A stretch of DNA of 64,000 bases from a virus (lineage: Duplodnaviria > Caudoviricetes), in IMG/VR virus record IMGVR_UViG_3300037721_000031, positions 96,001 to 160,000 of that record; one strand, 5' to 3'. Shown in pieces: positions 20,083 to 35,165 of this stretch. How positions within the stretch are numbered: position 1 is the stretch's first letter; every line of letters starts with the position of its first letter. The notes under the pieces are model-generated. The model was not told the DNA's origin, searched no databases, and was given only the letters and a program-made list of their open reading frames with translations. The position numbers and the translations under genes were made by a program.

Positions 20083-20595
20083 ATGACACATGTATTTATA
20101 GAGAAAATGAACCTTAATATAGTTAAGGAAGATCTATATATTGACGAGGTTCTTTTCAGTCCTTATACTTATCAGCAAGAACTTATAAAAATAATAGTAT
20201 CTCCAGACATCTGTATTAATGCTTTAAATGTAGCAGATACAGTAAGACACGCTGACAGGACTATCAAGATAGAGGGAATGGAGAAACTATCCAAAGTCCT
20301 CTATCGACTCTGTCGGCAGATTGCCGACAAAATGAGTCATGATGGTCCTGTCACGTGTCACCTTTTTTTATCTCGTTCTGGATCTGAGAGCTTTCCAGCC
20401 CATACAGATCCAGATAATGTTTTGATTTATATAGTTGATGGTGAGAAGACCATAGTGTTAGATAACGAAACAATTACTCTAACCACGGATCAAGCTTTAT
20501 TTATGCCGTATGGTACTAAGCATCAAGCTGTTAATCAAAAAGAATCAATCATGCTAAGTTTTGGCTTAGAACGGTTTATAGTGGAGAAACTCTAA
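20083..20595 (+). CDS. Cupin/JmjC-like Fe(II)/2-oxoglutarate oxygenase
   Basis: SFPAHTDPDNVLIYIVDGEK...ALFMPYGTKHQA gives the HxD...H facial triad and a JmjC-like Lys; GAGGA RBS. Confidence 0.7.
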   Translation: MTHVFIEKMNLNIVKEDLYIDEVLFSPYTYQQELIKIIVSPDICINALNVADTVRHADRTIKIEGMEKLSKVLYRLCRQIADKMSHDGPVTCHLFLSRSGSESFPAHTDPDNVLIYIVDGEKTIVLDNETITLTTDQALFMPYGTKHQAVNQKESIMLSFGLERFIVEKL

Positions 20596-20597
20596 TT

Positions 20598-21683
20598 ATG
20601 ATGCGCACCGTCTACGTCAAGACTACGGAATCATGTAATCTTGATTGCAAACATTGCTTTACTGGTGGTAATCGACCTCCTCGTACGTTTTTAGATTTAG
20701 CTAAGACTGAGGATTGGATATCTCGCTTTGCTAACTACATATCTCCTGAAGATGATGTGCATTTTGAGTTACATGGAGGAGAACCGTTTCTTGCTCCTGT
20801 AAGTACTCTGAAATCTATTGTAACTACAATACGAGCTACTGGTTTAAAACATATGTCTATTGGAGCTACTACTAATCTAGTATATAAACTCAAAGATGAT
20901 TTGTTAGATTTTATAGTTAATGATTTAGATGCAATTGGTACAAGCTGGGATGCAGGTATTCGTTTCGCTAATGAAAAGCAAGAAGAGTTATGGCGTAAGA
21001 ATCTTCAAACACTAACAGATAAGAACATAAAAGTTGTACTGAATATTAGTGTCTCTCGCGCTGTTGTCGAAATGGATTGCGAAAAATTAATTACATTTAT
21101 TAGAGATACTAAATGTTATAAAGTCTTATTTGACCGTATAACACTTAATGGCAACGCTAATAATCATTTAAAATTATTTCCATCTAATGCTGAAATAAAT
21201 GACTGGTATTTGCGCATGCATGAGGCAACTACTAGACTAGATGCTCGTAAATGGTTTCATAATTCCATGCTAGAAGATGTTTACGCCAAGTTCGAGAATT
21301 CATTCTCAGCATGCGGTACATTCTGCAGAGATTGTGAAGAACGAAATATCACTCTAAATGCAAATGGTTCTATTGGTGGTTGTCCAAATTCTGCTCCTGA
21401 AGAGTTCTTTGGTCACATCGATATGGATATTGCAGAAATGTTCGGTACATCTAAAAGAATAGATGTAATGGTGAAAGAGCGCACACGTAACGATCACTGT
21501 TATACTTGTCCTGTCTTCAGTTACTGTGGATCAGATTGTCATCGTTTGGCGTGGGATGGTGATGTATGTGCTTCACCGAGGCGGTTAATGATGCGGTTAG
21601 CAGGCGTAGATGACTCTCTAGAACAACGACCGGCGACTACCACTCGTGTGTATAAAAACATTATTCCAATCTTTTCATCTTAA
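20598..21683 (+). CDS. Radical SAM/SPASM protein 1
   Basis: CNLDCKHC (CxxxCxxC), HGGEPF, SPASM Cys: CRDC...GCP...CYTCPVFSYCGSDC...C. Confidence 0.9.
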   Translation: MMRTVYVKTTESCNLDCKHCFTGGNRPPRTFLDLAKTEDWISRFANYISPEDDVHFELHGGEPFLAPVSTLKSIVTTIRATGLKHMSIGATTNLVYKLKDDLLDFIVNDLDAIGTSWDAGIRFANEKQEELWRKNLQTLTDKNIKVVLNISVSRAVVEMDCEKLITFIRDTKCYKVLFDRITLNGNANNHLKLFPSNAEINDWYLRMHEATTRLDARKWFHNSMLEDVYAKFENSFSACGTFCRDCEERNITLNANGSIGGCPNSAPEEFFGHIDMDIAEMFGTSKRIDVMVKERTRNDHCYTCPVFSYCGSDCHRLAWDGDVCASPRRLMMRLAGVDDSLEQRPATTTRVYKNIIPIFSS

Positions 21684-21698
21684 ATTTGAGAATTAAAT

Positions 21699-22274
21699 AT
21701 GCCAGATATTCTTAAAAGTAATGTACAGACCGATGCATATTCGGCTATTGTTGATAACATAAATAGTGTTGCAACCGACTATGGTCCTGCACCTATTGGG
21801 TCAGAACGCGGTTTGTCGTATTGTAATACTGCGATGTTGGAGTATTACAGTTTTGATCCCTCTGAGGCATGGCTTGCTAGCTATTTAAGTGGAAGCATTA
21901 CCCGTAGTGGACTCGTTGCTAGAGTAGGTATACTAGGTGGTTGGTACGCCCGTACTACTTGGGCAATACACGGTTTGACTGGTACTACATCTAGTGGTGC
22001 TTGGGATGGTTTTACTGTTCCATTTAGTGAACTTGATATTTTCTTTGTAAAGCCAGAATATCATCAAAGTCATTATGATGCCACGATAGCGGCTATTGCA
22101 GCTGCCGATACATCTGAATTATTTAATGACATTACTAGAACTGCAGTCGTCTCTTACTTAGTTAGAATTAAAAATGTTGTGCTTAATAATGCCACAACTG
22201 GTGATGTTGTAGATCTAAGAGTATGTCATAGCTCGTGTCACTCTAACTGTCACGGTTCGCGTGGTCGTCGCTAA
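21699..22274 (+). CDS. Putative rSAM substrate protein with C-terminal (CHxx)3-RGRR motif
   Basis: C-terminus CHSSCHSNCHGSRGRR (22224-22271); lies between rSAM genes. Confidence 0.65.
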   Translation: MPDILKSNVQTDAYSAIVDNINSVATDYGPAPIGSERGLSYCNTAMLEYYSFDPSEAWLASYLSGSITRSGLVARVGILGGWYARTTWAIHGLTGTTSSGAWDGFTVPFSELDIFFVKPEYHQSHYDATIAAIAAADTSELFNDITRTAVVSYLVRIKNVVLNNATTGDVVDLRVCHSSCHSNCHGSRGRR

Positions 22275-22287
22275 AATAGGTAATAAC

Positions 22288-23355
22288 ATGAAAAATCTTA
22301 TTAACCGTGTTTACATTAAGCACGACAACAATATAACACCAAGTAGCTATCAGTCAAGAATAATTGTTACTGATCGTGAAATGAGATATCCTATTTCAGA
22401 AGAGAGAGAAGTGCTTGATAAGGTGTTTATTAAACACTATGTTAAGTCTCTTGATGAACTGGATACACTGTATGGCGATAGAGAAGGGTTTTGGTCGGCG
22501 ATGCTTCTCTCTACTGAGAAACTGCTGATTATTGCTTCTCCGGCATTTACAGCTGAATTACTAATCCAGTACTGGAAGTCTGTCTTTAAGGATCCGAGTA
22601 GGTCCTTTATTAAGCTAATGTACGATTTGTTTACAGCACAGGAAAATCTACTCGGTTGCCGTGAAAAAGAAAGACAAATATCTAAAGAAGATGTTAACGT
22701 TATTGACAGAAAGTGTGTACCTGTTAGTGATGATTTGTTTAATGCTTTATTTGATAAAGTAGAACATTCGCAGATTGTCTCCGAAGCTCCAGTGACCAAG
22801 TTACCTTTCGAATACCTGCTGATTGGTCACCTGACTAAATCTGGTGGAAAGGGTTTAAATACTGAGTTCTATCGGCGTGCATCAAGTATTGTGCTGTTAA
22901 ACATTGTAAGGGCTATTGTTAATGCTAAAGAAGATTTCTTTAGTGAGACACATAACTACTACTTACTCGATGACGAAACTAGTCTTGGTGAATTGCGTAC
23001 AAATCCGATAGGATATCTTTCTAAGCACAAACGTTTAGCTTGGGTAGTTGATGAAGAGTTTGTATACGGTAATGAGGATGTCATCCTCAAAAAGTATTCT
23101 TTAGATAAGCTTAAAGATATTTTTAAAGTTTATACCACACTCTTTAAGTTTGAATATGATGAAGAGAAAGCTCTTGATTTCATCATAGCCAAAGATTATG
23201 CTGGTATGATTAGATATGATATTGCTGATCAAAAGGGTAATTTCTTTGGCGCAGATAGTTTCACAGCCAAAATAAACGGATTACTTATATCTCACCTTTA
23301 CGAGCTAGTTCGTAATAGTAAGGCTCAAGAATTGGATTGCTTTTCATTGAAGTAA
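22288..23355 (+). CDS. Unknown rSAM-cluster partner protein A
   Basis: ORF track 22261..23355; ATG 22288 with AGGT upstream preferred. No recognisable motif. Confidence 0.6.
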   Translation: MKNLINRVYIKHDNNITPSSYQSRIIVTDREMRYPISEEREVLDKVFIKHYVKSLDELDTLYGDREGFWSAMLLSTEKLLIIASPAFTAELLIQYWKSVFKDPSRSFIKLMYDLFTAQENLLGCREKERQISKEDVNVIDRKCVPVSDDLFNALFDKVEHSQIVSEAPVTKLPFEYLLIGHLTKSGGKGLNTEFYRRASSIVLLNIVRAIVNAKEDFFSETHNYYLLDDETSLGELRTNPIGYLSKHKRLAWVVDEEFVYGNEDVILKKYSLDKLKDIFKVYTTLFKFEYDEEKALDFIIAKDYAGMIRYDIADQKGNFFGADSFTAKINGLLISHLYELVRNSKAQELDCFSLK

Positions 23356-23357
23356 CT

Positions 23358-24455
23358 ATGTTCGACAAAAGTAACGTTGTGATTTTTGTAAGAGTTGTGC
23401 AAGGTTGTAATCTTAACTGCACACACTGCTTCACTCTTGGGAACCAAGATAAGGTATTGACAACACCTTTCGAATATATCGATCAGTTTCTTACATCAAT
23501 TAAGAAAAATGTCGATCCACGTCGAGGTGTTGTCTATTTACATGGTGGCGAGACATTCTTAGCTAAGTTATCATATCTTCGCAAAGTAACACAAAGAGCA
23601 CGAGAATTGTTCTCAGAAAAAGACTTTAAGATTATTCCACAGACTAACCTTGTTTATAAGCTTACTGATGACTTTCTAGATTTTATCCGCACAGAGTGTA
23701 ACGGGCATATTGGCGTATCTTGGGATGCCAAGATACGCTTTGGGTCAATTAAGACGGAACATCAAGAACGTCAAGAAGCAATGTATTTTCGTAATTTAAA
23801 AACATTACTAGATAATGGCTTTAAAGTGCATATTACAATTACAGCACAAAGACACTTACTAAACGTTAATCCATTGAACATAGCTAAGATGTTTGCAGGA
23901 GTAGCTTCAATAGACTTTGAACATCTAACAACATTCGATGAGAAGACTAGGGATTTACGTGTTAACTTACTGAAGTGGTCTAATTGGTTAGATAAGCTAG
24001 TTGATTATTATCAGCATAATGACGTAAGCTGGTGCCTGCCTCAGGTTGATCTTTTTACAAAGTCTATTGAGGATGGAGAAATTTATGCTTGTAAATGTAA
24101 CTGCTGTGATAGAAAAACGTTTACTCTAAATCCAAACGGCACTACTGGGTTTTGTCCGGACAATTCTTACATCTCACCTATATCTCATGTAAAAGAGATG
24201 ACTGAATCTTGGTCTACGTATGAAGAGAAAGCTCATAACGCTCACATTGAGCGATTAGCTACTTTGAGTACAGAGAACTGCTATACTTGTGAACATTATG
24301 CTGAGTGTGGCGGTAACTGTGAAGATACTTTCTTTGATGATTCTGGTGAATGTCCATTATCTAAGAAGGTGATCTCACGTATCAAGGAAAACAAGGTAAC
24401 ATTCATTAAATTACTTAATGAGCGTTCGAGTAAGAATTTAGCCGAAATGCAATAA
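23358..24455 (+). CDS. Radical SAM/SPASM protein 2
   Basis: CNLNCTHC, HGGETF, CKCNCC...GFCP...CYTCEHYAECGGNC...C. ATG 23358 preferred over 23337. Confidence 0.9.
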   Translation: MFDKSNVVIFVRVVQGCNLNCTHCFTLGNQDKVLTTPFEYIDQFLTSIKKNVDPRRGVVYLHGGETFLAKLSYLRKVTQRARELFSEKDFKIIPQTNLVYKLTDDFLDFIRTECNGHIGVSWDAKIRFGSIKTEHQERQEAMYFRNLKTLLDNGFKVHITITAQRHLLNVNPLNIAKMFAGVASIDFEHLTTFDEKTRDLRVNLLKWSNWLDKLVDYYQHNDVSWCLPQVDLFTKSIEDGEIYACKCNCCDRKTFTLNPNGTTGFCPDNSYISPISHVKEMTESWSTYEEKAHNAHIERLATLSTENCYTCEHYAECGGNCEDTFFDDSGECPLSKKVISRIKENKVTFIKLLNERSSKNLAEMQ

Positions 24456-24467
24456 AAGGAATCTGAC

Positions 24468-25307
24468 GTGTCTGACGAAACAACTCAACAACCAGCTAGC
24501 GACGTACCTGTAGTTCCAGAATACCGTGAGGTAACTGCACCTATTGGTACTGAATTTATTAGAGAATTCTTTAAGAATAAGAATATTACATTCCTAGTAA
24601 ATCACTCTCAGTCTAGGTTAAAGGGAGCAGTGTTCCTTACGTACTTGGCTAACTTAGCAGTGCCATCAGATATTAGGTTTGACCAACCCTTATCTGAAGA
24701 CGAGTATGTAACTATCATGAGTGCATACCTGGTACAGCGCACGATTAGTAAAGCTAAGACGTTACAGCTGATGATGGCGCAGGTAATTCTCTGGGCTAAA
24801 GGATTGAGCTTCGACAAGATTCCGTATAAGACTGGTGTACCAGAGAGCCACGTCTTAGCATTTGCTAAGAAGAACGGTCCAACTATCATGAGGTGGTTGC
24901 ACTTTGTTGACTCATCTCATGTCTTCGCAATGTCATCTATCGAAGCACTGAAAAAGGAACATGATCCTTTACAGCATGGCGTTAGCGTCATTGATGATAA
25001 AGAGTATATTGGTCATAACGCAGTATTACTCTACGATGTACCGCTCTTTACAGAGTTCTACTTCTCTATTCCTAATGCAGGTTATCGTTCTTCGTATTTT
25101 GTACGACAGTATGAGGACTACATGTTCGGTAATGAGAAGTTCGCAAAGTTCTTTGCTGTAAAGAATAACTTTTTAGCAAACATATACGAAGGTGTAGCCT
25201 CAGGCTATATTGATCTGAATAAGCCAGAAGAGTGTATGCTACTTGAAGGAAATAATGATGTCGGAAGTATCGCAACTGACAGTACCGAAACACCTCAAAA
25301 CGGATAA
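24468..25307 (+). CDS. Unknown rSAM-cluster partner protein B
   Basis: 279-aa ORF, GTG start with AAGGA RBS; overlaps the next rSAM gene. Confidence 0.6.
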   Translation: MSDETTQQPASDVPVVPEYREVTAPIGTEFIREFFKNKNITFLVNHSQSRLKGAVFLTYLANLAVPSDIRFDQPLSEDEYVTIMSAYLVQRTISKAKTLQLMMAQVILWAKGLSFDKIPYKTGVPESHVLAFAKKNGPTIMRWLHFVDSSHVFAMSSIEALKKEHDPLQHGVSVIDDKEYIGHNAVLLYDVPLFTEFYFSIPNAGYRSSYFVRQYEDYMFGNEKFAKFFAVKNNFLANIYEGVASGYIDLNKPEECMLLEGNNDVGSIATDSTETPQNG

Positions 25308-26394
25308 CTTCCTGACTTCTGTAGAGCGCGAAAGCGCCACTGGTTATCATCTCAGCTTAAACCTGGAATTACTACGCGGATGCCAGTTTAGCTGTAAGGG
25401 TTGTTTCGTAGATAAGTATGGTTCAGATCCAATGACTGACGAGCGAGGTGCGCAGCTTCTATCTTGGGTTACCAGTGCGCAAGAAGATGGTGGTTATCTA
25501 CCTACGGTAATATTTATCGGACCTACTGACTTCTTATCCTCTGGGAATACCATCGACGTACTGCGAGATCCACGTATTCAGCAAGTTGTCAGACGTTTTA
25601 AAAGACTATCTCTACAAACTACTTGTTTAGATATCAGTACAGCTCCAGAGATTGCTAAAGTGTTACGTGAACACTACAGTCATATGGAACTCGAGGTTAA
25701 CTTCTTAATGGAGCCAGAGCATGTTCTAACAGAGAAGTACCTTCGTACTGTTAAAGAGAATAGAGACAGTCTGTATGAGATAATTGACTGGCACATTCCC
25801 GTAAAAAGCTTCTGTATTATGAACGTCTATGAATACGAGAATGCAAAGAAAGATGACGTCATTAAGCTATTAAATGACTACAAAGAAATGCATTTGCGTA
25901 TCAAGGATATGTTTGATACTACAATTGACTTTAACTTCTCGATGTCAAGAAAACACAATCAAAACAAGTCATCCGAAGTTAAAGAAGCAATCATCAGAGT
26001 AACTAAGATGTTTGATAAAAGTGTTAATCACGATACATCTCAGTTTATTCGTTTCTCGTTTGGAAAATTAACTGATAGTCTGATCGAGAAACATTTTAAC
26101 TTTCTTAATGGTAAGTTTTACGTGTCACCATTACTTTACGATCGTTATGTAGCTTTTGTGCCAGAGTTGCAAATACCGTTTGTAAACTTTACTGTAGCTG
26201 AGTCTGAAGCATTTGAAGAACAGCTACAGCTAGAGCAATATCAGAATGCCGGCCAAAAAGACGAATGTGGTAGTTGTCGTTATCTTGGGTCGTGTACGGA
26301 TAGAAATATTCTTAAAGTTATGGATATCTATTCTATCAAGCACTGCATCATAGCGCGAGACGCCTTGGACAGTATTAACGTACGGCCAAATTAA
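25255..26394 (+). CDS. Radical SAM protein 3 (GPTD subtype)
   Basis: GCQFSCKGC; IGPTDFLS in place of GGEP; C-terminal CGSCRYLGSC...HC. ATG 25255 or 25258 after GAAGGA. Confidence 0.8.
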   Translation: MMSEVSQLTVPKHLKTDNFLTSVERESATGYHLSLNLELLRGCQFSCKGCFVDKYGSDPMTDERGAQLLSWVTSAQEDGGYLPTVIFIGPTDFLSSGNTIDVLRDPRIQQVVRRFKRLSLQTTCLDISTAPEIAKVLREHYSHMELEVNFLMEPEHVLTEKYLRTVKENRDSLYEIIDWHIPVKSFCIMNVYEYENAKKDDVIKLLNDYKEMHLRIKDMFDTTIDFNFSMSRKHNQNKSSEVKEAIIRVTKMFDKSVNHDTSQFIRFSFGKLTDSLIEKHFNFLNGKFYVSPLLYDRYVAFVPELQIPFVNFTVAESEAFEEQLQLEQYQNAGQKDECGSCRYLGSCTDRNILKVMDIYSIKHCIIARDALDSINVRPN

Positions 26395-26404
26395 CCTAGT
26401 AACA

Positions 26405-26444
26405 GCATAAGAGAGACTAGAGCGTACGCTCTAGTCTCTTGTGC
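26405..26444 (+). terminator. Hairpin inside the rSAM operon (terminator or processing/stabilising stem)
   Basis: 13-bp stem AGAGACTAGAGCG/CGCTCTAGTCTCT between rSAM3 and rSAM4. Confidence 0.55.
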
Positions 26445-26469
26445 CATAATTTAATAAAAGGTACTTGAC

Positions 26470-27531
26470 ATGCAAAATGCTGAAGAACAGTTACTTAAAC
26501 AGTTACTCGCTTCCAAAGTACAAGATTCCTCAGAAATAGAACACCATTTATTCGAATTGTGCAATCTTAATTGCTCCTTCTGCGGACAGGATCATGATTC
26601 GAAAGAAGGTATTGATACAATCTTAGAGAAAGCTCATCAGACTGTGGAGTTCATGCGTAACTCTCCATTGAAGAGCCATACAGTCAATGTGATGGGTGGC
26701 GAGATCTTTAATGATTTGGTACCAGATTCTGTATTTGATGACTATTATGCTTTTTATAAAGTTATTAATGACTATGCAGTTTCAAACGACCTTACAGTTA
26801 GAATTAACTTTGTAACCAATTTAATATTTTCTAAGAATACTTCTAGTGTTCAGAAATTACTTGAGATATGTGGTGACAATGTTTGGATTTCTACGTCTTA
26901 CGACTTTGCTGGTAGGGGGCTTGATATAAATCGCATGATGATGTTCAAACGTAATCTAGAGATCTTTAAGCCTCGTATCGGAGTAGTTGGTTTTGTACTG
27001 GCTAAGCCATCTATTCGTAAGTTGATTGCTGATAAAGATAAGTTCTTTAAAGAAGTTCTATACGCTAACTACCCGTTGTACTTTGATTGGTATGTACCTG
27101 AAAATAGTGCAGATAAGATGATGCCTTCAGAGCAAGAGATGCTTGACGGTCTTCTATTCGTTGCTGATCGTTATCCTAAGATAGAGCCAGTTAGAAGCAT
27201 GTTAGAAAATGAAGAAAATAAGATGACATGCTTTTCACTTAATAAGACAACTATCTTACCAGATGGTCGTGAAGTTAAGTGTAGGTATATGGAGTATGAA
27301 GCTGAACAGTTTGAGACTCCAATCGATTATTCTACTAATAGTGGAATCATCAATGCGCATCTCGAACGTAATGAATGTTTTAGTTGCGAGTGGTATAAAA
27401 GGTGTCCATTAGTATGCTTCGTACAATCAGACTGGACAAAAAGAGAAAGACTACCTGTCTGTTTTATGAAAACATTCTTTAACACAGCAGTCGGAAAAAA
27501 TAATGCCACCAACGATACAGATGAAAGATAA
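26470..27531 (+). CDS. Radical SAM/SPASM protein 4
   Basis: CNLNCSFC, MGGEIF, C-terminal CFSCEWYKRCPLVC...C. Confidence 0.88.
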   Translation: MQNAEEQLLKQLLASKVQDSSEIEHHLFELCNLNCSFCGQDHDSKEGIDTILEKAHQTVEFMRNSPLKSHTVNVMGGEIFNDLVPDSVFDDYYAFYKVINDYAVSNDLTVRINFVTNLIFSKNTSSVQKLLEICGDNVWISTSYDFAGRGLDINRMMMFKRNLEIFKPRIGVVGFVLAKPSIRKLIADKDKFFKEVLYANYPLYFDWYVPENSADKMMPSEQEMLDGLLFVADRYPKIEPVRSMLENEENKMTCFSLNKTTILPDGREVKCRYMEYEAEQFETPIDYSTNSGIINAHLERNECFSCEWYKRCPLVCFVQSDWTKRERLPVCFMKTFFNTAVGKNNATNDTDER

Positions 27532-28270
27532 AAGATTCGGTAGATTAACAGTTATTGATAATGGTACAAGGTTACCTAACCGTACTCGTGTTTATGAGTG
27601 TCTATGTGAGTGCGGAGTTGTTAAAAAAGTAGACGGTGGTAATCTGAGGCATGGAGTAATAAAAAGTTGCGGATGCTTACGTCGTGAGATTGTTAGTCAA
27701 AGCAATAACAATCTCACTCACGGGATGCGCTATACACCGGAATATCAAGCTTGGATTAACATGCGTAGACGATGTGATGCGGGTCCAGATACGAGGGAGT
27801 ATGCGTATTACGGTGCTAAAGGGATTACTGTTTGCGAAAGATGGCTGAACAGCTTCGAAGCTTTTTATGAAGATATGGGTCCTAGACCATCGCCAGACCA
27901 TTCTATCGATAGAAGAGAAAATGATAAAGGCTACTACAAAAATAATTGTAGATGGGCTACCTGGGAAGAGCAGCAGAATAACAGAAGTAATAATTCAGTT
28001 AATACTGTTGATGGAGTTGTATATTCCTCTATTGCAAAGCTGGCTCGTGAAAAAAATATATCAGAAGCTACTGTAAAAGCAAGAATCTATAAACAAAATA
28101 TGTCTGTAGAAGAAGCTGTTTCTAAAGGAACAAATCGCTATTCACTTATGGTAAACGGTGAAAGTAAATCTGTTAATGAGTTAAGTGAAATAACAAATAA
28201 AACATCTGCTACAATTCGATATCATCTTAGAAGAGGTAGGACTGTAGAAGACATACTTAAAGATAGGTAG
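27503..28270 (+). mobile_element. Free-standing HNH homing endonuclease gene
   Basis: FGRLTVI...YECLCECG...KSCGC...HGM..TPEY.AW.NMRRRC...YG.KGITVC.RW..FEAFY.DMG.RP....SIDR..ND.GY...NCRWAT..EQ.NN, plus C-terminal HTH-like repeats; overlaps the rSAM4 3' end by 29 nt. Confidence 0.85.
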
Positions 28271-28387
28271 CTTAGATGTTTCGTGAATGCAGATTGGACA
28301 AAGCTAGAGAGACTACCAACTTGCTTTTTAAAGACATTTTTTAATGAAACAGTTGGAAAGAAGAATCATGTTCAGACGACTACTTGA
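28271..28387 (+). pseudogene. Displaced original 3' end of rSAM4
   Basis: Translates LRCFVNADWTKLERLPTCFLKTFFNETVGKKNHVQTTT*, 23/32 aa identical to the rSAM4 C-terminus encoded from 27409. No start codon. Confidence 0.85.
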
Positions 28388-28526
28388 TGTGTTTATGAAA
28401 GTTACCGGTAATAGTCAATATGGCTGGTGGGCTAAGTATTTATGGGAGGATAAATATGTTTGGTCAGCCACTAAAGAGGCAGCTATACTTGGCTGTCGTC
28501 AAAGAGCAATGGAGAGTAAGAAATGA
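28368..28526 (+). CDS. Small hypothetical protein
   Basis: ORF track 28344..28526; in-frame ATG 28368 after GGAAAG preferred; ATGA-type overlap with the next gene. Confidence 0.45.
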   Translation: MFRRLLDVFMKVTGNSQYGWWAKYLWEDKYVWSATKEAAILGCRQRAMESKK

Positions 28527-28849
28527 TTAAAACATTTACTCTGTTCTTTATAACTGCTTACTTTGAGATTCTTGGCTGTTACTCAGTATTGCAATATGTC
28601 AAAACATTTCGGCAAAGTGGCTCCTCTGCCATAGCTCTTATTACTGCAATTATATCTCTCAGTATATTTGCGTGGCTACTTACATTACACCCAACAGAAT
28701 CTGGGAGAGTGTATGCTGCTTATGGCGGCGTATATGTACTTACATCTCTTTTATGGTTGTGGCTTATTGATGGAGTTCATCCGACTGTATCGGATATCTC
28801 AGGAGTAGTGTTAATATTACTAGGCTCACTATTGATAATGAAGCAATAA
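28523..28849 (+). CDS. ynfA: YnfA/UPF0060 family small membrane protein (SMR-like)
   Basis: AYFEILGCY...FAWLLTLHPTESGRVYAAYGGVYVLTSLLWLWLIDG..PT..DISG; four TM helices, 108 aa. Confidence 0.85.
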   Translation: MIKTFTLFFITAYFEILGCYSVLQYVKTFRQSGSSAIALITAIISLSIFAWLLTLHPTESGRVYAAYGGVYVLTSLLWLWLIDGVHPTVSDISGVVLILLGSLLIMKQ

Positions 28850-28867
28850 CCTCTCTGGAGAACTATC

Positions 28868-29113
28868 TTGACTTTTGAAGAACTGTTAGAATTGCGTAGA
28901 ACACAAGGTCCAGAAGCTGCAAATGAAGTTTTAAAGACAATGTCTCTAGAACAGATGAGGGACATTACCATTGAAGCTAATAAACAAATTATAAATTTGG
29001 CTAACTTATTTGTTGCGACTTATATGGATTATGCTGTTGAAGCGAACCTACCATCTGCACAAAAAGCAAAACAAGATGTAGATTTTCTCATTAAAAAGGT
29101 AAATGGGAAATGA
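28868..29113 (+). CDS. Hypothetical protein
   Basis: 81-aa ORF, GGAG RBS, ATGA overlap with the NUDIX gene. Confidence 0.5.
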   Translation: MTFEELLELRRTQGPEAANEVLKTMSLEQMRDITIEANKQIINLANLFVATYMDYAVEANLPSAQKAKQDVDFLIKKVNGK

Positions 29114-29553
29114 AGTACGTCGTAGGTCTTTTATTCAGTAAGAAATTGGATCAAGTTCTACTTTTAAAAAAGGTAAAAGGTCCAGAAGGCGTTGTAGGTA
29201 AGTGGAACGGTCATGGTGGTAAAATTGAGCCAACGGAATATGCACTAGATGCTATTGTAAGAGAAACAATTGAAGAGACTGGATTAGTTATACCTGCAAA
29301 AGACTGGTTACTATTTCATCACTTTATTCGAGCCGATGGTAATGAAGTTTATTTCTATACATCTACTATACCAGATAGTCAAACGTACAGTCAGATAGAA
29401 GAAGAAACTATTGAACTAAAATATGTTAATGATGTCATACTGTCTTTTCTTGGAGACGGTAGTTTAAACAATCCACATGTTTATAACTTGTCATACCTTA
29501 TTCCGATGGCGTTGTCTTATTGTAAGTTTCCACAGTTTCGTTACGCTGAGTAA
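29110..29553 (+). CDS. NUDIX hydrolase (MutT-like)
   Basis: Exact Nudix box G-KIEPT-E-YALDAIV-RETIEETGL. Confidence 0.88.
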   Translation: MKYVVGLLFSKKLDQVLLLKKVKGPEGVVGKWNGHGGKIEPTEYALDAIVRETIEETGLVIPAKDWLLFHHFIRADGNEVYFYTSTIPDSQTYSQIEEETIELKYVNDVILSFLGDGSLNNPHVYNLSYLIPMALSYCKFPQFRYAE

Positions 29554-29737
29554 ATCAGCTTCATTAAATAATGCGAATAGAGAGCTTTTATTATTTTATA
29601 ATAATAAAAATTGGACAGTTGGTGATCTATCTAAAGAATTTGGTATTAAGTATTAGACACTCTACGACCGTATCTTTACTAAAAGATGGAGTGCTGATAA
29701 GTCCATTAATACACCTGTTAATGTTAGGAGTACATAA

Positions 29738-30814
29738 ATGGATCTCATCCTGAAACCAACTTCCGCTTGCAATTTTCGCTGCACGTTTTGCAGTTCAACA
29801 GTTTTAAGTGAAAATGATTCGGATGTACTGGATCTATCTTACGTACGAGAGTTTCTCGTACGTTTCCCAAATACACGAACCATCATAGTCAATGGTGGTG
29901 ATCCGCTAATGATGAGACCAGAGTACTATTGGGAGATTATCAGTATACTTGAAGAACTGGGGCTGAAAGATACCACGATATCACTTACAACTAATCTATG
30001 GGCATTCTACAAAAAGCCTGAGATGTGGCAGGATCTTTTCAAACATCCTCAAGTTGGAGTAGCAACAAGTTTCCAGTATGGTAATGCACGCTTGAAAGGT
30101 GACTATAAGCCTTATACAGAAGAAGAGTTCTGGAAAGTATCTGATTTGTTTTTAGAACGTATTGGATACAGGCCTAGTTTCATTGCGGTCATTACAAAAG
30201 AAAACGAAGACTCAGCAATACAGACTGTTGAATTGGCTAAGAAGATGGGTGTAGTGTGTAAGGTCAATTATGCAGTAGCTTCTGGCCCTAAGAAAACCAC
30301 ATTCAAAGGTATCACAATTGGTAATGCTGGTAGTACGTATGTGCTGTCTGACATTTACGAAATGTATATCAAGATCCATGAAGCAGGATTGACGCAGTGG
30401 GAACATAACACTTCACAAATGGCTGTACGTTTGCGTGGTGAGAACACTACATGCCCACAAGCTCGTGATTGCGACAGCGCTATTAGAACTTTACAGCCTG
30501 GAGGTAAATACTACTCCTGTGGGGCTTTTGGTGATGATGGTCTGTACCCCATCGACTTTAAAAAAGAAATGACTGGAGAGCTCGCTAGGCCCCTGCAAAC
30601 GCATGAGCTAATGTCATTGAAAACTGCGTGCTTCGAATGCCCGATGTTTGATATCTGTAATGGGTGTAGGAAAACTACTCACGATTTGAAGACACTAGGT
30701 TTAGTAGAAACACATTGCAAGAAAATGAAGACTCTTGCATCCAAGATCATTGAGATCAACGGTATGTCTGATGTGCTTAAACCTACTCCTTACATTAAGG
30801 AATATGAAGAATGA
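29738..30814 (+). CDS. Radical SAM/SPASM protein 5
   Basis: CNFRCTFC, NGGDPL, CPQARDC...YSCG...CFECPMFDICNGC...C. Confidence 0.9.
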   Translation: MDLILKPTSACNFRCTFCSSTVLSENDSDVLDLSYVREFLVRFPNTRTIIVNGGDPLMMRPEYYWEIISILEELGLKDTTISLTTNLWAFYKKPEMWQDLFKHPQVGVATSFQYGNARLKGDYKPYTEEEFWKVSDLFLERIGYRPSFIAVITKENEDSAIQTVELAKKMGVVCKVNYAVASGPKKTTFKGITIGNAGSTYVLSDIYEMYIKIHEAGLTQWEHNTSQMAVRLRGENTTCPQARDCDSAIRTLQPGGKYYSCGAFGDDGLYPIDFKKEMTGELARPLQTHELMSLKTACFECPMFDICNGCRKTTHDLKTLGLVETHCKKMKTLASKIIEINGMSDVLKPTPYIKEYEE

Positions 30815-31866
30815 GCTACAGTAACTCAGTATCTCTTATACTTGAAGGGAGTCAGGGTTGCCAAATGAATTGTACTGGGTGCCGTATAAACAAAGCATCG
30901 TCATACTTTCCTTCTGAAAGAGAACAGTACGATATAGACGCATTCCTAGACAGTGTTGTAGCTGATGGTTTAGAGCTGGATGAGGTGGAGCTTGGACCTA
31001 CTGATTTATTGTCTGCAAGTAATCGAGTAGAGTTTTTTAGTCCCTATTTGAAGGTATTAATTGAGCGCTTTAAACTAGCAGCTTTTCAAGTATCTCTTAT
31101 TCATCCGAGAGAATCTGTGGAAGGTTTTGTAGCTGATATTAACAAAGTAGCTAACTCAAATTCTAAGATTAATCTTACAACACCGCTTGAAGTGAAGCAT
31201 GTCTTTAATGATAAGTATATTCAGCGTATTAAAGATAATGTTGAAATTATTCGGCAAGGCTCTATTTCTCGTGTAGATGAAGTGGTCTTGAGTGTCGTCT
31301 TCGATATTGATATACTGTCTAATATTGGTTCTAAATATAACTACGAAGAACTCTTTTGCAGAGTGCGTAACTTATCTATAGGTCCTGACACATTAGTAGA
31401 TTTTGTTTTTCATCACGGTCGTGGTGATCTAACTGATCCTGTCGTAGGTAAGAACTTTATAAAATCATTTAAAGAAGTAAATCGCTTCTTTACTAATGAT
31501 TTTGAACGTAATGCAGATATGCCTACAGTAAGAAAAATGCCTTCTCAGCTAGTGGTGCCAAATGACCGTCCAGTGGAAGTTGTTTGGAGAGCAGGTAAGT
31601 TATTCATCAGACCAATCTTAAATGAAGGTTTTGTAATTGAAGACTCTCGTTTTGAGATTTCTAAGCCTTGGGATGCATCGACATATCGTACAAAGTTGAT
31701 TGAAGACATAACTCGCAATCTGGAATATTCGGAACAGATAGATGATTGTCAAAGCTGTCAACACGTGATGCTGTGTGCCTCACGTTCCATGCATGACGTA
31801 TTACAAATGGTTGGTAGTAAGCATTGTTTCTACTTGCTTAAAGACTATAAACCAATTGAATTGTAA
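30811..31866 (+). CDS. Radical SAM protein 6 (GPTD subtype)
   Basis: GCQMNCTGC, LGPTDLLS, C-terminal CQSCQHVMLC...HC; ATGA overlap with rSAM5. Confidence 0.8.
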   Translation: MSYSNSVSLILEGSQGCQMNCTGCRINKASSYFPSEREQYDIDAFLDSVVADGLELDEVELGPTDLLSASNRVEFFSPYLKVLIERFKLAAFQVSLIHPRESVEGFVADINKVANSNSKINLTTPLEVKHVFNDKYIQRIKDNVEIIRQGSISRVDEVVLSVVFDIDILSNIGSKYNYEELFCRVRNLSIGPDTLVDFVFHHGRGDLTDPVVGKNFIKSFKEVNRFFTNDFERNADMPTVRKMPSQLVVPNDRPVEVVWRAGKLFIRPILNEGFVIEDSRFEISKPWDASTYRTKLIEDITRNLEYSEQIDDCQSCQHVMLCASRSMHDVLQMVGSKHCFYLLKDYKPIEL

Positions 31867-31913
31867 AGTAACAATATCTACGTTTCAATTCTACTGTTGA
31901 ATGGAGAAAAAAT

Positions 31914-33032
31914 ATGGCATTCAACGAGAAGGCTGCTGCATTAATTTTCGAAGTCACTCATGGTTGTCAGTATAGCTGTACAGGCTGTACTGTAAATAAA
32001 CAATCCTCTAACTTACCAGATGAAGAAAGCTTTAATACACTGATCGCTTTCTTAGACAACCTGGAATATAACGGAATAACATTATCAGAGTTAGAATTAG
32101 GACCGACAGATTTAATGACGTCGATTAATAGGGATGAAGTTTTATCGCATCCTACGTTTAACGCTATGGCTAAACGTTTCCAATTATTAACGTTTATTGT
32201 CGGCTTAATTCTACCTAAAGAAGATGATTACATTAGGTTAGCACACCAGTTAAATCTACTTACTGATAAGGTGGACATTGGAATAGTCACTCCAATAGAA
32301 CTTACACATGTTGGCAATGATAAGTATCTGCGTACGATAGAGAAGAATGTTAGAACTTTAATTGATCATCTAGATGCACCGCTTGTAGAAATTATTTTAC
32401 AAGTACAGTTCGACGCAAGGTTTCTTACTCAACGTCAAGTAGGTTCACCGTCTTACGATAATTTATTTGATAAAATTCATAGCTTAGATTTACCTGTACG
32501 TACAAAAGTGAACTTTACATTACCTCATGGTAGATCAAAGCTGGAGTCGGAATTAGTAGCAGGTAACTTTTTAGATTCCATACAAGCTCTTAACACATTC
32601 TATCTGCGAGATATGAAGCGACGTGCTGGTAGTCTGGAACGGCGTCATCTTCCGTTTCAACTATTAAATCCTCGCCACAGCGGTGAAGTACTTTGGCACG
32701 ATAATAACTTGTATATTAGGCCAGTTATTAACGAGAGATTTACTGCACTGAGTGAAGACCGTAAATTTACACAGCCATGGACGTATGATAGTTTTGTAAC
32801 TACTTCTCTAGAGATGACAAATCGTTCTTTAGAGAAAGGATTACAGTTTGAAGATTGTGTCAGTTGTGAGCATTTAATGACTTGTGCTAACAGAGGTATT
32901 CATGAAGTGATGGATGTTGTCGGTACTAGCAAGTGCATTATGCTTCTGAAGAATTATGGCTATTTATGTACTCCCCTGCAGAATGGGGAATTTGGTGAAA
33001 TTGATTGGGGTACTATTCTGCCTCTCCCATGA
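31914..33032 (+). CDS. Radical SAM protein 7 (GPTD subtype, tandem paralog of rSAM6)
   Basis: GCQYSCTGC, LGPTDLMT, HGR, L(Y/F)IRP.(I/L)NE, CVSCEHLMTC...KC. Confidence 0.8.
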   Translation: MAFNEKAAALIFEVTHGCQYSCTGCTVNKQSSNLPDEESFNTLIAFLDNLEYNGITLSELELGPTDLMTSINRDEVLSHPTFNAMAKRFQLLTFIVGLILPKEDDYIRLAHQLNLLTDKVDIGIVTPIELTHVGNDKYLRTIEKNVRTLIDHLDAPLVEIILQVQFDARFLTQRQVGSPSYDNLFDKIHSLDLPVRTKVNFTLPHGRSKLESELVAGNFLDSIQALNTFYLRDMKRRAGSLERRHLPFQLLNPRHSGEVLWHDNNLYIRPVINERFTALSEDRKFTQPWTYDSFVTTSLEMTNRSLEKGLQFEDCVSCEHLMTCANRGIHEVMDVVGTSKCIMLLKNYGYLCTPLQNGEFGEIDWGTILPLP

Positions 33033-33052
33033 TTATTCTTTAGGAAATTGAC

Positions 33053-33538
33053 GTGAATAAAGCTGAAATTATGACGATGATCGAACCTTACTCGACATAC
33101 GTGCAAGTGATGCTTGATAGAATTAAGAATAAACGAGAATCTTATTCTAAGATGCTTGACAATCACTCTACCTTTTTAGAGCAGATAGCTACTCTTGGTT
33201 TAATAATTCCTCGACAACAGTGCGCTAGTATGTGGTTAACTCATGAATTTACTACGCGTAATAGTGGCGACATTATCTATGGGTACGGAAGTCTCCGATA
33301 TGTGATTTCTTCTAATTACAGTAATTGTTTGGACATGACGTTCAATGATGATTTAGTAAGTAGAATGAAGACCACTGATGACATTCGCACAAGTATTACT
33401 CACGATATCCCACCATCTGGAGATTTTATTTTTATTGATGGATCTCGTCAATTATTTAAGTGTGTGAGGGCTGGTAAATTCTATAATTGGTTAGCTAATC
33501 ACGTGGATATTAACTTTACCATAGTTTGTCTTAACTGA
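33053..33538 (+). CDS. Hypothetical protein
   Basis: 161-aa ORF, GTG start after AGGA. Confidence 0.5.
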   Translation: MNKAEIMTMIEPYSTYVQVMLDRIKNKRESYSKMLDNHSTFLEQIATLGLIIPRQQCASMWLTHEFTTRNSGDIIYGYGSLRYVISSNYSNCLDMTFNDDLVSRMKTTDDIRTSITHDIPPSGDFIFIDGSRQLFKCVRAGKFYNWLANHVDINFTIVCLN

Positions 33539-33545
33539 AAGTAAA

Positions 33546-34505
33546 GTGATGTTAGCTAATCCAAATGGCATTATACACATTAGCTTGAATCCAAGCTATC
33601 ATTGTAACTTTCGTTGTAAGAACTGCTACCTCACTGAAGAACAACTAAGCAACCGTCAGCTATTACAGTTAGAAGAGTTGGATAAACGCCTTACTGAAAT
33701 CAAAGCATCAGGTCACACCCTAGGCCATATGGACATCTACGGTGGAGAGGTGATGATTCTGCCTAAAGGTTATATTCAAAGTGTTAAAAGCATTTTACAT
33801 AATCACGGCATAAATGAAATTGAAATTATCACCAACTTATCCGCACTAAATAAAGATATAGTAGATGATGAAGATTTTGGTATTAGCGTTAGCTATGACT
33901 TCACAGCTAGAGAACGTCATGGTGAAGTATATGAAAATATGCTTAAGATGAGTAGGCATTTCACTGTACTTACTTTAGCCACACCTGAAGTAATTAAGAT
34001 GGATGTTGACGAATTGATAATGGAACTGAATACGCTTGGTAACATGTATTGTTGGGAAATAAAGCCGTATAGTACTAATCAAGCTAATCAATCCAGTGTT
34101 ACGTTTAGTGAGTTTGAAGAGTTTATTAAACGAATTTTTCAAAGCCTTATCCCTAAGAATTTTGAATTCTTGAATGCGTCTATTTTGTATGATGCTGTTA
34201 AAGGTGAACGTAATTCATTTTCAGACGACCACATCTACATTACTCCTACCGGTAAATTCGCTGTGTTAGAGTTTGATCTTAATGATAATGAATACTTTTT
34301 AGAACTTGATAACTTCGACAAGTATCTGGAGTGGTGCGTTATTGAAAAGAATAGAGTATTCAACAATAAGTTCTGTTCACAATGCGAGTTCTCAGGGAAA
34401 TGTTTATCTGAGCATTTACGGAAAGTAACGTCTCTCGATAATAGCTGCAACGGGCTTCATAATTTGATACAGTGGGCGAAGACTAATGTGGAAGTAAGAG
34501 TATGA
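33546..34505 (+). CDS. Radical SAM protein 8
   Basis: CNFRCKNC, YGGEVM, C-terminal CSQCEFSGKC...C (reduced SPASM). Confidence 0.87.
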   Translation: MMLANPNGIIHISLNPSYHCNFRCKNCYLTEEQLSNRQLLQLEELDKRLTEIKASGHTLGHMDIYGGEVMILPKGYIQSVKSILHNHGINEIEIITNLSALNKDIVDDEDFGISVSYDFTARERHGEVYENMLKMSRHFTVLTLATPEVIKMDVDELIMELNTLGNMYCWEIKPYSTNQANQSSVTFSEFEEFIKRIFQSLIPKNFEFLNASILYDAVKGERNSFSDDHIYITPTGKFAVLEFDLNDNEYFLELDNFDKYLEWCVIEKNRVFNNKFCSQCEFSGKCLSEHLRKVTSLDNSCNGLHNLIQWAKTNVEVRV

Positions 34506-34933
34506 AAGAATGGAAAGATTATCAGGAAATATATCGTCGATTAGTAACTGAACATACTGATGCGCGTCATCTACATAAGCGTGTAATGAGTGATGAAAAA
34601 GTAGATAACGCAATTCGCTATGTTCAAGCCCAAGATGATTATGGTATTTATCCTGCTAAGAGTTACATTATAGCGATCATATATGCATTCATGATACAGG
34701 AAGTATATGGTGAAGATCTGTATGAATCATTGAACGATCCTGAGTTACTTCCTCAAGATGATTTCTTTGTTACGTATGAAGAAGACTCTGAAACCTACGA
34801 TGCTATTCTTACTAAACTAGAAGGAATTCCTGACTGGATTAAAGGTGGTTGGGCTCCTAGAACAGTCGAGTACTTCTATGCCGAGTGTACTGAAGAAGGT
34901 GTGAATTCTATTAATGGAGTCATTAATGAATAA
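34502..34933 (+). CDS. Unknown rSAM-cluster partner protein C (acidic)
   Basis: 143 aa, translationally coupled to rSAM8. Confidence 0.6.
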   Translation: MKEWKDYQEIYRRLVTEHTDARHLHKRVMSDEKVDNAIRYVQAQDDYGIYPAKSYIIAIIYAFMIQEVYGEDLYESLNDPELLPQDDFFVTYEEDSETYDAILTKLEGIPDWIKGGWAPRTVEYFYAECTEEGVNSINGVINE

Positions 34934-35123
34934 CCCATTTAAGAACAGAGCTGCTGAAACAATGGGACATGAGAGTCCTCCAGAATTTAGAAGAACTTCT
35001 GGATCTGTAATTTGTCAGACTTGCGGTAAAGAGTATCGCAGACATCCTGGTAGTGAGCATAAAGACTGGAATGGTGACTACTTTCTGAAACAGTTATGTG
35101 ATGGAAGCTTGGTAAAGCTATAA
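34914..35123 (+). CDS. Small CxxC zinc-finger-like protein
   Basis: ICQTCGKEYRRHP...LCDG; last gene before the terminator. Confidence 0.55.
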   Translation: MESLMNNPFKNRAAETMGHESPPEFRRTSGSVICQTCGKEYRRHPGSEHKDWNGDYFLKQLCDGSLVKL

Positions 35124-35165
35124 AGCAGCATAAAAGCCTGGCAATTGCCAGGCTTTTATGCTGCT
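35124..35165. terminator. Perfect 42-bp palindrome, bidirectional terminator
   Basis: AGCAGCATAAAAGCCTGGCAA|TTGCCAGGCTTTTATGCTGCT between convergent genes. Confidence 0.75.

Follow-up and report, generated by a model that had tools for sequence, protein, structure and literature searches.

The closest characterised system to the gene cluster described here is HXS (TIGR03976-03979), an antiphage defence in which two radical S-adenosylmethionine enzymes (rSAMs), HxsB and HxsC, together with HxsD, mature the protein HxsA (Li et al., Nat Commun 2026; PMC13128918). HxsA carries five basic His-x-Ser repeats, and an essential change of +8 Da has been mapped to SHRSS; the mature protein reaches the periplasm by export and prevents the entry of phage DNA, for which it needs a signal peptide and a peptidoglycan-binding domain, and 99.7% of HXS systems are found in Pseudomonadota (PMC13128918). 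The cluster studied here encodes eight rSAMs and occupies positions 20083 to 35123 of a 64,000-nucleotide stretch of caudoviral DNA, hereafter the window (positions 96,001 to 160,000 of IMG/VR record IMGVR_UViG_3300037721_000031, which is 266,566 bp in full). It is one copy of a widespread, unannotated multi-rSAM system that occurs in phages and predatory bacteria and is defined by a tail of 16 residues, (C-H-x-S)3-R-G-R-R, at the extreme C terminus of the protein g03. The system is probably one of rSAM-dependent protein maturation, with HXS as its nearest counterpart.

Like HXS, the cluster combines several rSAMs that have auxiliary clusters with non-catalytic partners, has a protein rather than a short peptide as putative target, and features tandem His-x-Ser units in a basic context. 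It nevertheless lies outside the HXS families, as rSAM1 scored 30.4 bits against HxsB (TIGR03978; cut-off 370) and rSAM5 27.3 bits against HxsC (TIGR03977; cut-off 267.9), while NCBIfam gave no match to HxsD (TIGR03976) or HxsA (TIGR03979) among g03, g04, g06, g17, g19 and g20. In contrast to HXS, every unit is preceded by an invariant Cys, and exactly three units stand at the extreme C terminus, followed by RGRR; unlike HxsA, g03 has neither a signal-peptide-like N terminus (by inspection) nor a peptidoglycan-binding domain (Pfam scan). Four to eight rSAMs from other subfamilies are present here, with oxygenases, and whereas HXS belongs to Gammaproteobacteria, the carriers here are phages, where the genes lie beside fibre genes, and Bdellovibrionota, and one homologue is a virion protein. 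The first-pass annotation, which knew of no characterised system with this architecture, did not cite HXS, now a characterised precedent for rSAM-matured His-x-Ser repeat proteins.

The maturases of ribosomally synthesized and post-translationally modified peptides (RiPPs) offer a further comparison. PapB is a ranthipeptide maturase, and YhhB and XyeB are cyclophane formers. With these enzymes, the sactipeptide synthases and DynA/DarE, the locus shares the combination of CX3CX2C with SPASM/twitch and a precursor-like gene adjoining an enzyme, and the tail recalls rSAM/SPASM RiPP cores with repeated Cys or aromatic-x-x units. Unlike in RiPP clusters, the candidate substrate is a protein of 125-365 amino acids (aa) with a conserved domain rather than a leader-core peptide, four or more rSAM families are present, scans found no RRE/PqqD, peptidase or exporter, and scores reached 45-57 bits where the equivalog cut-offs are 340-450; on sequence, the locus does not qualify as a RiPP cluster of the sacti-, ranthi- or cyclophane type. 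SPASM rSAMs also modify proteins: QhpD/QhpC forms cross-links between Cys and Asp/Glu within the gamma subunit of quinohemoprotein amine dehydrogenase (QHNDH), and anSME converts Cys/Ser to formylglycine in sulfatases. QhpD and anSME resemble the enzymes proposed here as SPASM rSAMs modifying Cys or Ser of a protein that stays intact, and full-length alignments to anSME were obtained for rSAM1, 2 and 5 at 41-45 bits (cut-off 349); the QHNDH maturase reached 21 bits (cut-off 453, NCBIfam). The tail contains no C/S-x-P-x-R sulfatase motif, and no dehydrogenase or sulfatase genes are found in the context.

Clusters of several rSAMs have been annotated in the jumbo phages RSF1/FLC6 (PMC8066314) and S13 (PMC11898562), and eight radical SAM genes inside a large structural-gene cluster of Aeromonas phage 332-Vera were called 'highly unusual' (PMC12390700). 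These papers give annotations only, and report neither the Cys-His-x-Ser tail protein nor its co-conservation, distribution, Bdellovibrionota copies or function. Literature on phage rSAM/SPASM enzymes with tail fibres, on phage-encoded RiPPs and on Bdellovibrio radical SAM enzymes yielded no functional study.

The positional homologues of g03 in cultured phages could not be aligned by tblastn, yet the tail is common to all of them, with the consensus C-H-[ST]-S-C-H-x-S-C-H-x-[SA]-R-[GS]-R-R-stop. The degenerate DNA pattern of the tail carries about 43 bits, so that essentially zero chance matches are expected, and it matched at least 120 IMG/VR viral contigs. Among the matches listed there were 123 distinct viral tail proteins, 124-364 aa long and in 68% of cases without any other Cys. 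Positions that the pattern leaves unfixed were also kept: each Cys has a Ser at +3 in 79-91% of the proteins, and the Gly of RGRR is retained in 88%. Using a profile search, 849 clusters at 50% identity were identified among 1.84 billion representatives, and the tail-protein family comprises 357 clusters at 90% identity, every one of which is labelled 'hypothetical' and none of which has a Pfam domain. The canonical three-repeat end, (C-H-x-x)3-R-x-R-R-stop, was found in 246 of 259 members retrieved by the profile, and the body of the protein has conserved N-terminal motifs of its own. No NCBIfam match was obtained for g03 at E <=0.01, and its fold model, which was mediocre (pLDDT 67.6), had no PDB match. 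A few tail proteins (in L037, L154 and L162) have four CHxx units instead of three.

The eight rSAMs were grouped by BLAST and profile comparison into the families R1 (rSAM1 and rSAM2), R4 (rSAM4), R5 (rSAM5) and R8 (rSAM8) and a divergent R3 type (rSAM3, 6 and 7). In loci found by the tail motif alone, these families lie beside the tail gene in 118 of 124, the exceptions being short fragments (all locus counts are among the tail-pattern matches listed, 124 loci); co-conservation of the enzymes with the CH-repeat (Cys-His-repeat) protein, a test named beforehand, was therefore borne out. A syntenic module was also identified in two unrelated sets of cultured phages, as had been looked for in other jumbo phages: the Ralstonia RSL2/RSF1 group with Burkholderia FLC6, FLC8 and S13 and Pseudomonas pPa_SNUABM_DT01, and the giant T4-like phages Atu_ph07 and Phosso. 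Identity to rSAM5 was 73% in RSF1, and to rSAM8 48-55% in RSF1, DT01, Atu_ph07 and Phosso.

The typical gene order is fibre-like gene(s), cupin, R1, tail protein, g06, f6, R4, 2-oxoglutarate (2OG) oxygenases, R5, R8 and g19, with a B12-binding rSAM sometimes accompanying the 2OG oxygenases between R4 and R5. The cupin, homologues of which occur in 66 loci, is directly followed by R1 in 60 of 61 loci; the gene after R1 is that of the tail protein in 76 of 87 cases, and the order cupin-R1-tail protein-g06 is near-fixed; g06 was found in 85 loci, R4 in 66 and R3 in 35. Among the long loci (>=9 kb downstream of the tail gene, n=20), R5 and R8 were each present in 20/20, R4 in 19/20, g06 in 18/20, g19 in 15/20 and any 2OG oxygenase in 14/20. 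The conserved core thus consists of four rSAM families (R1, R4, R5 and R8) and the 279-aa partner g06, usually accompanied by g19, an f6-like protein and a cupin or 2OG oxygenases, and the window holds the full core together with four additional rSAM paralogues (rSAM2, 3, 6 and 7). A second layout begins with two tandem tail proteins of ~127 aa, after which come a g06 homologue, f14 and several R3 paralogues, and the longer loci of this kind also hold cupin, R1, R4, R5, R8 and g19. Tandem short tail proteins were seen in many contigs (L005, L030, L039, L043, L058 and others); they end in IEGRxxNRSxxxxxCHxSCHxSCHxSRGRR and adjoin three to six R3-type rSAMs. Additions in related loci are a 556-aa B12-binding radical SAM enzyme and 2OG-Fe(II) oxygenases of as many as four families (L117 961-2631; L080 6015-7222; L046 1717-2283; L118 9591-10109); the window has neither, and the cupin is its sole oxygenase.

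All eight CxxxCxxC open reading frames (ORFs) of the first-pass annotation were recovered at their starts on the + strand, each with one N-terminal CX3CX2C. Their C-terminal SPASM/twitch-like Cys sets could likewise be read, being full (CX2CX5CX3C with upstream and downstream Cys) in rSAM1, 2, 4 and 5 and shorter, twitch-like and of four to five Cys in rSAM3, 6, 7 and 8. In rSAM1 the CX3CX2C starts at residue 13, GGEP lies at 60 and the SPASM Cys set is complete; scores against the SPASM model TIGR04085 were 28.1 bits for rSAM1 (cut-off 27), 22.0 for rSAM2 and 21.5 for rSAM5. These features place the enzymes in the SPASM/twitch subgroup, with predicted auxiliary 4Fe-4S clusters. A search with PF04055 (Radical_SAM), proposed as a check, was decisive for rSAM5 (56.1 bits; cut-off 29.5), whereas the remaining seven fell below the cut-off (rSAM2 29.4 bits, others 17-29, rSAM6 and rSAM7 without a match) and are recognised by motif, sub-threshold matches and profile-profile links. 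Using hhalign, R1, R4, R5 and R8 were found to be mutually related at 97-99.6% probability, and R3 to be linked weakly, at 11-92%. Membership of the radical SAM superfamily is thus firm for five ORFs, and for the three of R3 type it is supported by the motif and weak profile links. Within the cluster, rSAM2 is 29% identical to rSAM1 (E 3e-37), and rSAM3 is paralogous to rSAM6 and rSAM7, which are 38% identical to each other.

None of the eight rSAMs reached a family cut-off in the NCBIfam scan. The best matches of rSAM1, 2 and 5 were to DynA, YhhB, PapB, anSME and FxsB, at 40-57 bits against cut-offs of 340-450; these are SPASM enzymes that modify peptides or proteins, not housekeeping rSAMs. 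Housekeeping families (NrdG, QueE and MoaA) gave 20-38 bits against NCBIfam cut-offs of 131-325, and the highest scores were 28 bits for NrdG2 (cut-off 131), 21 for QueE (260), 38 for MoaA (284) and 48 for prokaryotic viperin (180). Assignment to such families had been named beforehand as the outcome that would count against a dedicated system, and all fell far under their cut-offs. Across the 266,566 bp of the record, one CX3CX2C ORF was found outside the cluster, so that the clustering of rSAMs is not a matter of chance, and the whole genome contains a single Cys-His-repeat ORF.

The position of the module and one published proteome connect the system with the virion. The two fibre genes upstream of the module in the window match tail-fibre, tail-protein and virion-structural PHROGs, at E values down to 1e-302, and in RSF1, DT01 and related contigs the module likewise comes after homologous fibres (family f20). 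Upstream sequence of 1.5 kb or more was available for 68 loci, and in 54 of these a same-strand ORF of >=350 aa is found among the three preceding genes; most upstream families tested match tail-fibre or baseplate PHROGs (by their representatives). The module usually follows tail-fibre genes. In the virion proteome of Atu_ph07, the tail-protein homologue gp170 (31.89 kDa) was detected by 8 unique peptides at 35% coverage (PMC6102473 Table S5). It was found in gel bands 1-9 with its peak in band 1, at the gel top, whereas other proteins of ~30 kDa peak in bands 7-8 (PMC6102473); the high-mass form may be a disulfide, an SDS (sodium dodecyl sulfate)-resistant oligomer or a covalent cross-link. 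The adjacent rSAMs gp165, 168 and 171, the cupin gp172 and the g06 homologue gp169 are missing from the virion list, and the upstream products gp176 and gp177 are present in it (PMC6102473). The suggestion of the first-pass annotation that the target is a virion component thereby gains independent support, from a virion list that includes gp170 and omits the enzymes.

To determine how far the system extends beyond phages, the tail pattern was scanned in one genome per prokaryotic species. Matches in prokaryotic genomes numbered 47, ~30 of them from Bdellovibrionota (Bdellovibrio, Bacteriovorax, Halobacteriovorax and Pseudobdellovibrio), where R1, R3, R4, R5, R8, g06, f6, g19 and the cupin occur beside the tail gene. 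Four Bdellovibrionota genomes were examined for the surroundings of the cluster, which sits on contigs of 0.3-2.8 Mb; its flanks encode CarB, SMC, a DinG-like helicase and the PilQ secretin, and for these four genomes the copies are taken to be chromosomal and a prophage was rejected. Bdellovibrionota R5 proteins are 53-59% identical to rSAM5 of the window, and in the R5 tree all 13 of them form one supported clade with a Flavobacteriaceae metagenome-assembled genome (MAG), apart from the phage clades. R5 was present in 10 of 301 sampled species genomes (~3%) of the phylum of G001, a Bacteriovoracaceae MAG within Bdellovibrionota. The Bdellovibrionota tail proteins have no signal-peptide-like N terminus (by inspection), and in the loci examined adjacent fibre-like genes are mostly absent and the tail protein is retained. 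Two loci contain other large or fibre-related proteins: in G002 (L178 15764-17005), a 413-aa protein with a Peptidase_S74 intramolecular-chaperone domain, a domain characteristic of trimeric fibres or spikes, is encoded two genes away from R8, and in G001 (L173 2865-9932) a 2355-aa RCC1/Big_2 surface-type protein adjoins g06 and the tail gene. Phage-type modules, some with 2000-aa fibre genes, were seen in L171, L153, L134, L142, L152 and L169; the labels of these contigs include a Methanobacteriota MAG, Dysosmobacter segnis, a Rickettsiales MAG and a Rhodobacteraceae bin, but the sequences are probably of phage origin and ended up in the bins of cellular genomes. Matches in genomes of high guanine-cytosine content (Paraburkholderia, Frankia, Microbacterium, Bordetella and others; L126-128, 130, 131, 148 and 159) were discarded, having no in-frame tail-ending ORF or system genes, as was L156 (Actinokineospora), in which the tail-ending ORF is cut at the locus edge and system genes are absent.

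The explanation that we favour, at slightly better than an even chance, is that the cluster is a maturation pathway for the tail of g03 and that the matured virion protein acts with the fibres at the cell envelope. Late in infection, R1 (rSAM1), R4 (rSAM4), R5 (rSAM5) and R8 (rSAM8) would act in the cytoplasm on the three Cys-His-x-Ser units and perhaps on the Arg tail. They would be helped by the Fe(II) cupin oxygenase and by three non-catalytic partners, namely g06, the f6-like g04 and g19, and rSAM2 (R1-type) and rSAM3, 6 and 7 (R3-type) would be additions of this phage to the pathway. SPASM/twitch maturases and HxsB/HxsC serve as the analogy for the chemistry, which probably consists of radical cross-links or heterocycles. 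Matured g03 would then be built into the virion, most likely with the fibres encoded just upstream, and its modified tail would work at the cell envelope in adsorption, penetration or DNA entry. The tail is suggested as the substrate because it is near-invariant while the bodies of the proteins diverge beyond BLAST recognition, and because the genome holds one CH-repeat ORF only. The conserved Ser is a poor metal ligand, but it belongs to a His-x-Ser unit of the kind modified by rSAMs in HxsA. A role at the envelope is favoured by the chromosomal copies in Bdellovibrionota, since these bacteria attack Gram-negative envelopes. The first-pass proposal of a dedicated, multi-step protein-modification system is supported by the housekeeping and co-conservation tests, with its chemistry putative. 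A bolder version, in which at least four rSAMs turn the tail into a new cross-linked or metal-binding structure that arms or covalently anchors the host-recognition or penetration apparatus, an ancient device common to unrelated phage lineages and a predatory Bdellovibrionota clade, is possible but clearly below an even chance.

Several observations weigh against the pathway as set out. Modification of the tail is inferred and has been observed on none of the members, and a predicted complex of rSAM1 with tail residues 140-191, three 4Fe-4S clusters and SAM gave a score of 0.18 where 0.32 was the mark, and was not used as evidence either way. Residence in the virion is documented for one homologue, that of Atu_ph07, and the annotations of RSF1 and S13 do not list theirs as structural. 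As the gel loading buffer used for Atu_ph07 had no listed reductant (PMC6102473), the high apparent mass of gp170 could come from disulfides through unmodified Cys or from an SDS-resistant oligomer. The patchiness in Bdellovibrionota (10/301) is as compatible with an accessory or defence function as with predation. No RiPP recognition element (PqqD/RRE), peptidase or ABC exporter was found when the cluster and the accessory families of related loci were scanned with Pfam and NCBIfam.

The patchy spread is among the grounds for considering a gatekeeper like HxsA, which would block DNA entry for superinfection exclusion in phages and for antiphage defence in Bdellovibrionota, or would serve as a decoy or counter-measure against host HxsA. 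Precedent exists in that rSAM-matured HxS repeats are able to block phage DNA entry (PMC13128918), the tail is basic (RGRR) with His-x-Ser units, and all cultured carrier phages have hosts in Pseudomonadota, the home of nearly all HXS systems. However, the two elements needed by HxsA, a signal peptide and a peptidoglycan-binding domain, are missing from the tail protein, none of the proteins belongs to HxsA, HxsB, HxsC or HxsD, the Atu_ph07 homologue is a virion protein, and in unrelated phage lineages the genes follow fibre genes on the same strand with overlapping junctions, which together make this unlikely. Somewhat less likely again is that a metal centre or cluster is coordinated by the three Cys and three His, with the rSAMs building or inserting a metallocofactor (compare NifB and HydE/HydG) and the virion protein being redox-active or catalytic. 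Such a role would suit the exactly three Cys-His pairs in 246 of 259 members, the scarcity of other Cys in the tail proteins (none in 68%) and the four or more rSAM families, a number more usual in cofactor assembly than in the formation of single RiPP cross-links; it leaves the conserved Ser and the RGRR end unexplained, the nearest enzyme families are peptide maturases rather than NifB, HydE or HydG, and Pfam/NCBIfam scans of the module gave no scaffold, GTPase or metal-transport genes.

Co-occurrence is no proof of an enzyme-substrate pair, and the rSAMs might have a different target: the fibres or some other virion protein, or else nucleic acid or a molecule of the host envelope. In that case the CH-tail protein would be an accessory such as an Fe-S/sulfur carrier or chaperone. 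The unsupported prediction for the rSAM1-tail complex and the many His-rich repeats in the fibres of the window are consistent with this, but fibre families vary among loci and the tail is the sole invariant non-enzyme feature, being kept in Bdellovibrionota loci that mostly have no adjacent fibre-like genes. A precursor gene adjoining its maturase is the rule in rSAM peptide systems, and the tail gene lies beside rSAMs in the same way; another substrate is accordingly judged improbable. The conserved core at the C terminus and the presence of several rSAMs with oxygenases, as in the pathways for pyrroloquinoline quinone (PQQ) or mycofactocin, would also agree with a tail from which a small molecule, either a metallophore or a peptide-derived cofactor, is made and released, the N-terminal body being its carrier or leader. 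This we consider very improbable, given that the module has no peptidase among its genes, that the body has conserved N-terminal motifs of its own and that the homologue in the virion was covered at 35%.

If a matured g03 tail acts from the virion, it would be the first radical-SAM-matured virion protein. A large unannotated family is in any case defined, in which g06, f6 and g19 are likewise unnamed, and its conserved 16-residue tail is a sharply defined candidate substrate at which new radical chemistry of Cys, His and Ser could be sought. Its presence in phages and predatory bacteria points to a common means of attacking Gram-negative envelopes, and the kinship of its motif with that of HXS suggests that rSAM-modified His-x-Ser repeats may be used on both sides of the phage-host conflict, at the step of DNA entry; were the arming or anchoring reading true, the system would be the attack-side counterpart of HXS defence. 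Since RSF1, FLC6, S13, DT01 and Atu_ph07 are under development for biocontrol, the role of a conserved module of 10-15 kb is also of practical relevance.

Table 1. Features of the rSAM cluster and its borders in the window
Feature	Position	Strand	Basis or remark
Two paralogous tail-fibre genes, 1286 and 850 aa	13507..20013	+	PHROG matches; context upstream of module
Cupin/JmjC-like Fe(II) oxygenase, 170 aa, first module gene	20083..20595	+	Pfam
rSAM1, core family R1, SPASM	20598..21683	+	CX3CX2C, TIGR04085
CH-tail protein g03, 191 aa, proposed substrate	21699..22274	+	C-terminal end CHSSCHSNCHGSRGRR; tail coding 22224-22271
g04, 364 aa, partner, distant f6-family member	22261..23355	+	hhalign
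rSAM2, additional R1 paralogue, SPASM	23358..24455	+	BLAST, Cys motifs
g06, 279 aa, near-universal non-rSAM partner	24468..25307	+	Fold unrecognised
rSAM3, divergent R3-type, twitch-like C terminus	25243..26394	+	CQFSCKGC and four C-terminal Cys
rSAM4, core family R4, SPASM	26470..27531	+	CX3CX2C and seven-Cys SPASM set
HNH homing endonuclease (27503-28270) and diverged duplicate of rSAM4 3' end	27503..28390	+	PHROG; insertion outside system
Variable cargo slot: small ORFs, YnfA/UPF0060 membrane protein, NUDIX hydrolase	28344..29753	+	Pfam
rSAM5, core family R5, SPASM, most conserved enzyme	29738..30814	+	Pfam Radical_SAM above cut-off
rSAM6 and rSAM7, two R3-type paralogues	30811..33032	+	CX3CX2C and twitch-like Cys set each
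g17, 161 aa	33053..33538	+	phrog_2586
rSAM8, core family R8	33546..34505	+	CNFRCKNC and C-terminal Cys set
g19, 143 aa, conserved small partner, and g20, 69 aa	34502..35123	+	Homologues of g19 in related loci
Perfect 42-nt palindrome between convergent genes	35124..35165	.	Read from sequence

The cluster forms a same-strand run of ~20 ORFs between the two tail-fibre genes and the palindrome, which is likely a bidirectional terminator closing the run. Stop/start overlaps or 2-nt gaps occur at 20595/20598, 22274/22261, 25307/25243, 27531/27503, 30814/30811, 34505/34502 and 34933/34914, and the earlier description of one strand, overlapping junctions and an end at the 35124 palindrome agrees with the ORF coordinates and the sequence. 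The 15-kb region had no megablast match among phage records. As a dedicated cluster of ~15 kb, the region has to be reduced: the conserved rSAM set stands, and the HNH insertion and the YnfA/NUDIX cargo are not part of the system. The ninth CX3CX2C ORF of the genome lies outside the window on the - strand (G000:C1:175073-176047), is 324 aa from stop to stop and contains CDQACRFC.

The fibre paralogues of the window are built of 14-15 and ~10 copies of a His-containing repeat of ~61 aa (...DNPHxTTxxQVGLGxVxN...MTP...). Otherwise different upstream fibres of related loci (L102 1903-5544, L060 2615-5872, L055 5371-7776, L067 2322-4019 and L093 6978-8279) have in common a C-terminal domain of ~100 aa (phrog_19602 tail fibre, phrog_22593, phrog_6427), which may be a docking site for the tail protein; it was not among the top PHROG matches of the window's own fibres. 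Just past the terminator, on the - strand (36317-38437), lies a gene for a tail-spike- or fibre-like protein of 706 aa (phrog_4636), and host-recognition genes therefore flank the module on both sides.

The cupin noted among the rSAM ORFs was confirmed by Pfam (Cupin_2 1.6e-9, JmjC_2 5e-7), and the partners without a named family number four (g04, g06, g17 and g19), not three as first counted. No NCBIfam match was obtained for g04, g06, g17, g19 or g20 at E <=0.1. By hhalign, g04 is related to f6 at 98.8% probability (E 1.2e-16); it has no Pfam or NCBIfam match, and an Atlas search was uninformative (model pLDDT 0.29, feature scores <=0.87). The AF2 model of g06 is good (pLDDT 88, pTM 0.83), and the protein is homologous to f17 of the tandem-tail loci (hhalign 98.9%). 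Its fold had no Foldseek match in PDB, the best VIA Z was 4.8, and AFDB returned its own family only; long alignments to the rSAM structures ChlB and anSME at Z ~3 were too weak for it to be considered a degenerate rSAM. For f6, and for f14 of the tandem-tail loci, the same idea was rejected, as was a relationship of f14 to f6, no hhalign relation being found. The product of g17 belongs to phrog_2586, a PHROG without assigned function, and as it showed no hhalign relation to the 2OG families of related loci, it was rejected as a divergent 2OG oxygenase. Homologues of g19, which has no Pfam or NCBIfam family match, are present in all four cultured lineages and in 21 loci.

The HNH homing endonuclease (PHROG HNH endonuclease, 2e-63) is inserted at the 3' end of rSAM4. 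When translated, the remnant after its stop aligns with the C terminus of rSAM4 (...CFVNADWTKLERLPTCFLKTFFNETVGKK... versus ...CFVQSDWTKRERLPVCFMKTFFNTAVGKN...), and the insertion has thus left a diverged duplicate of the rSAM4 3' end downstream. The cargo slot between R4 and R5 (Pfam UPF0060 1e-27, NUDIX 1e-9) holds genes that have no homologues in related loci; in RSF1, the equivalent slot (L001 12688-13977) is occupied by an HNH gene and two dihydrofolate reductase (DHFR) genes.

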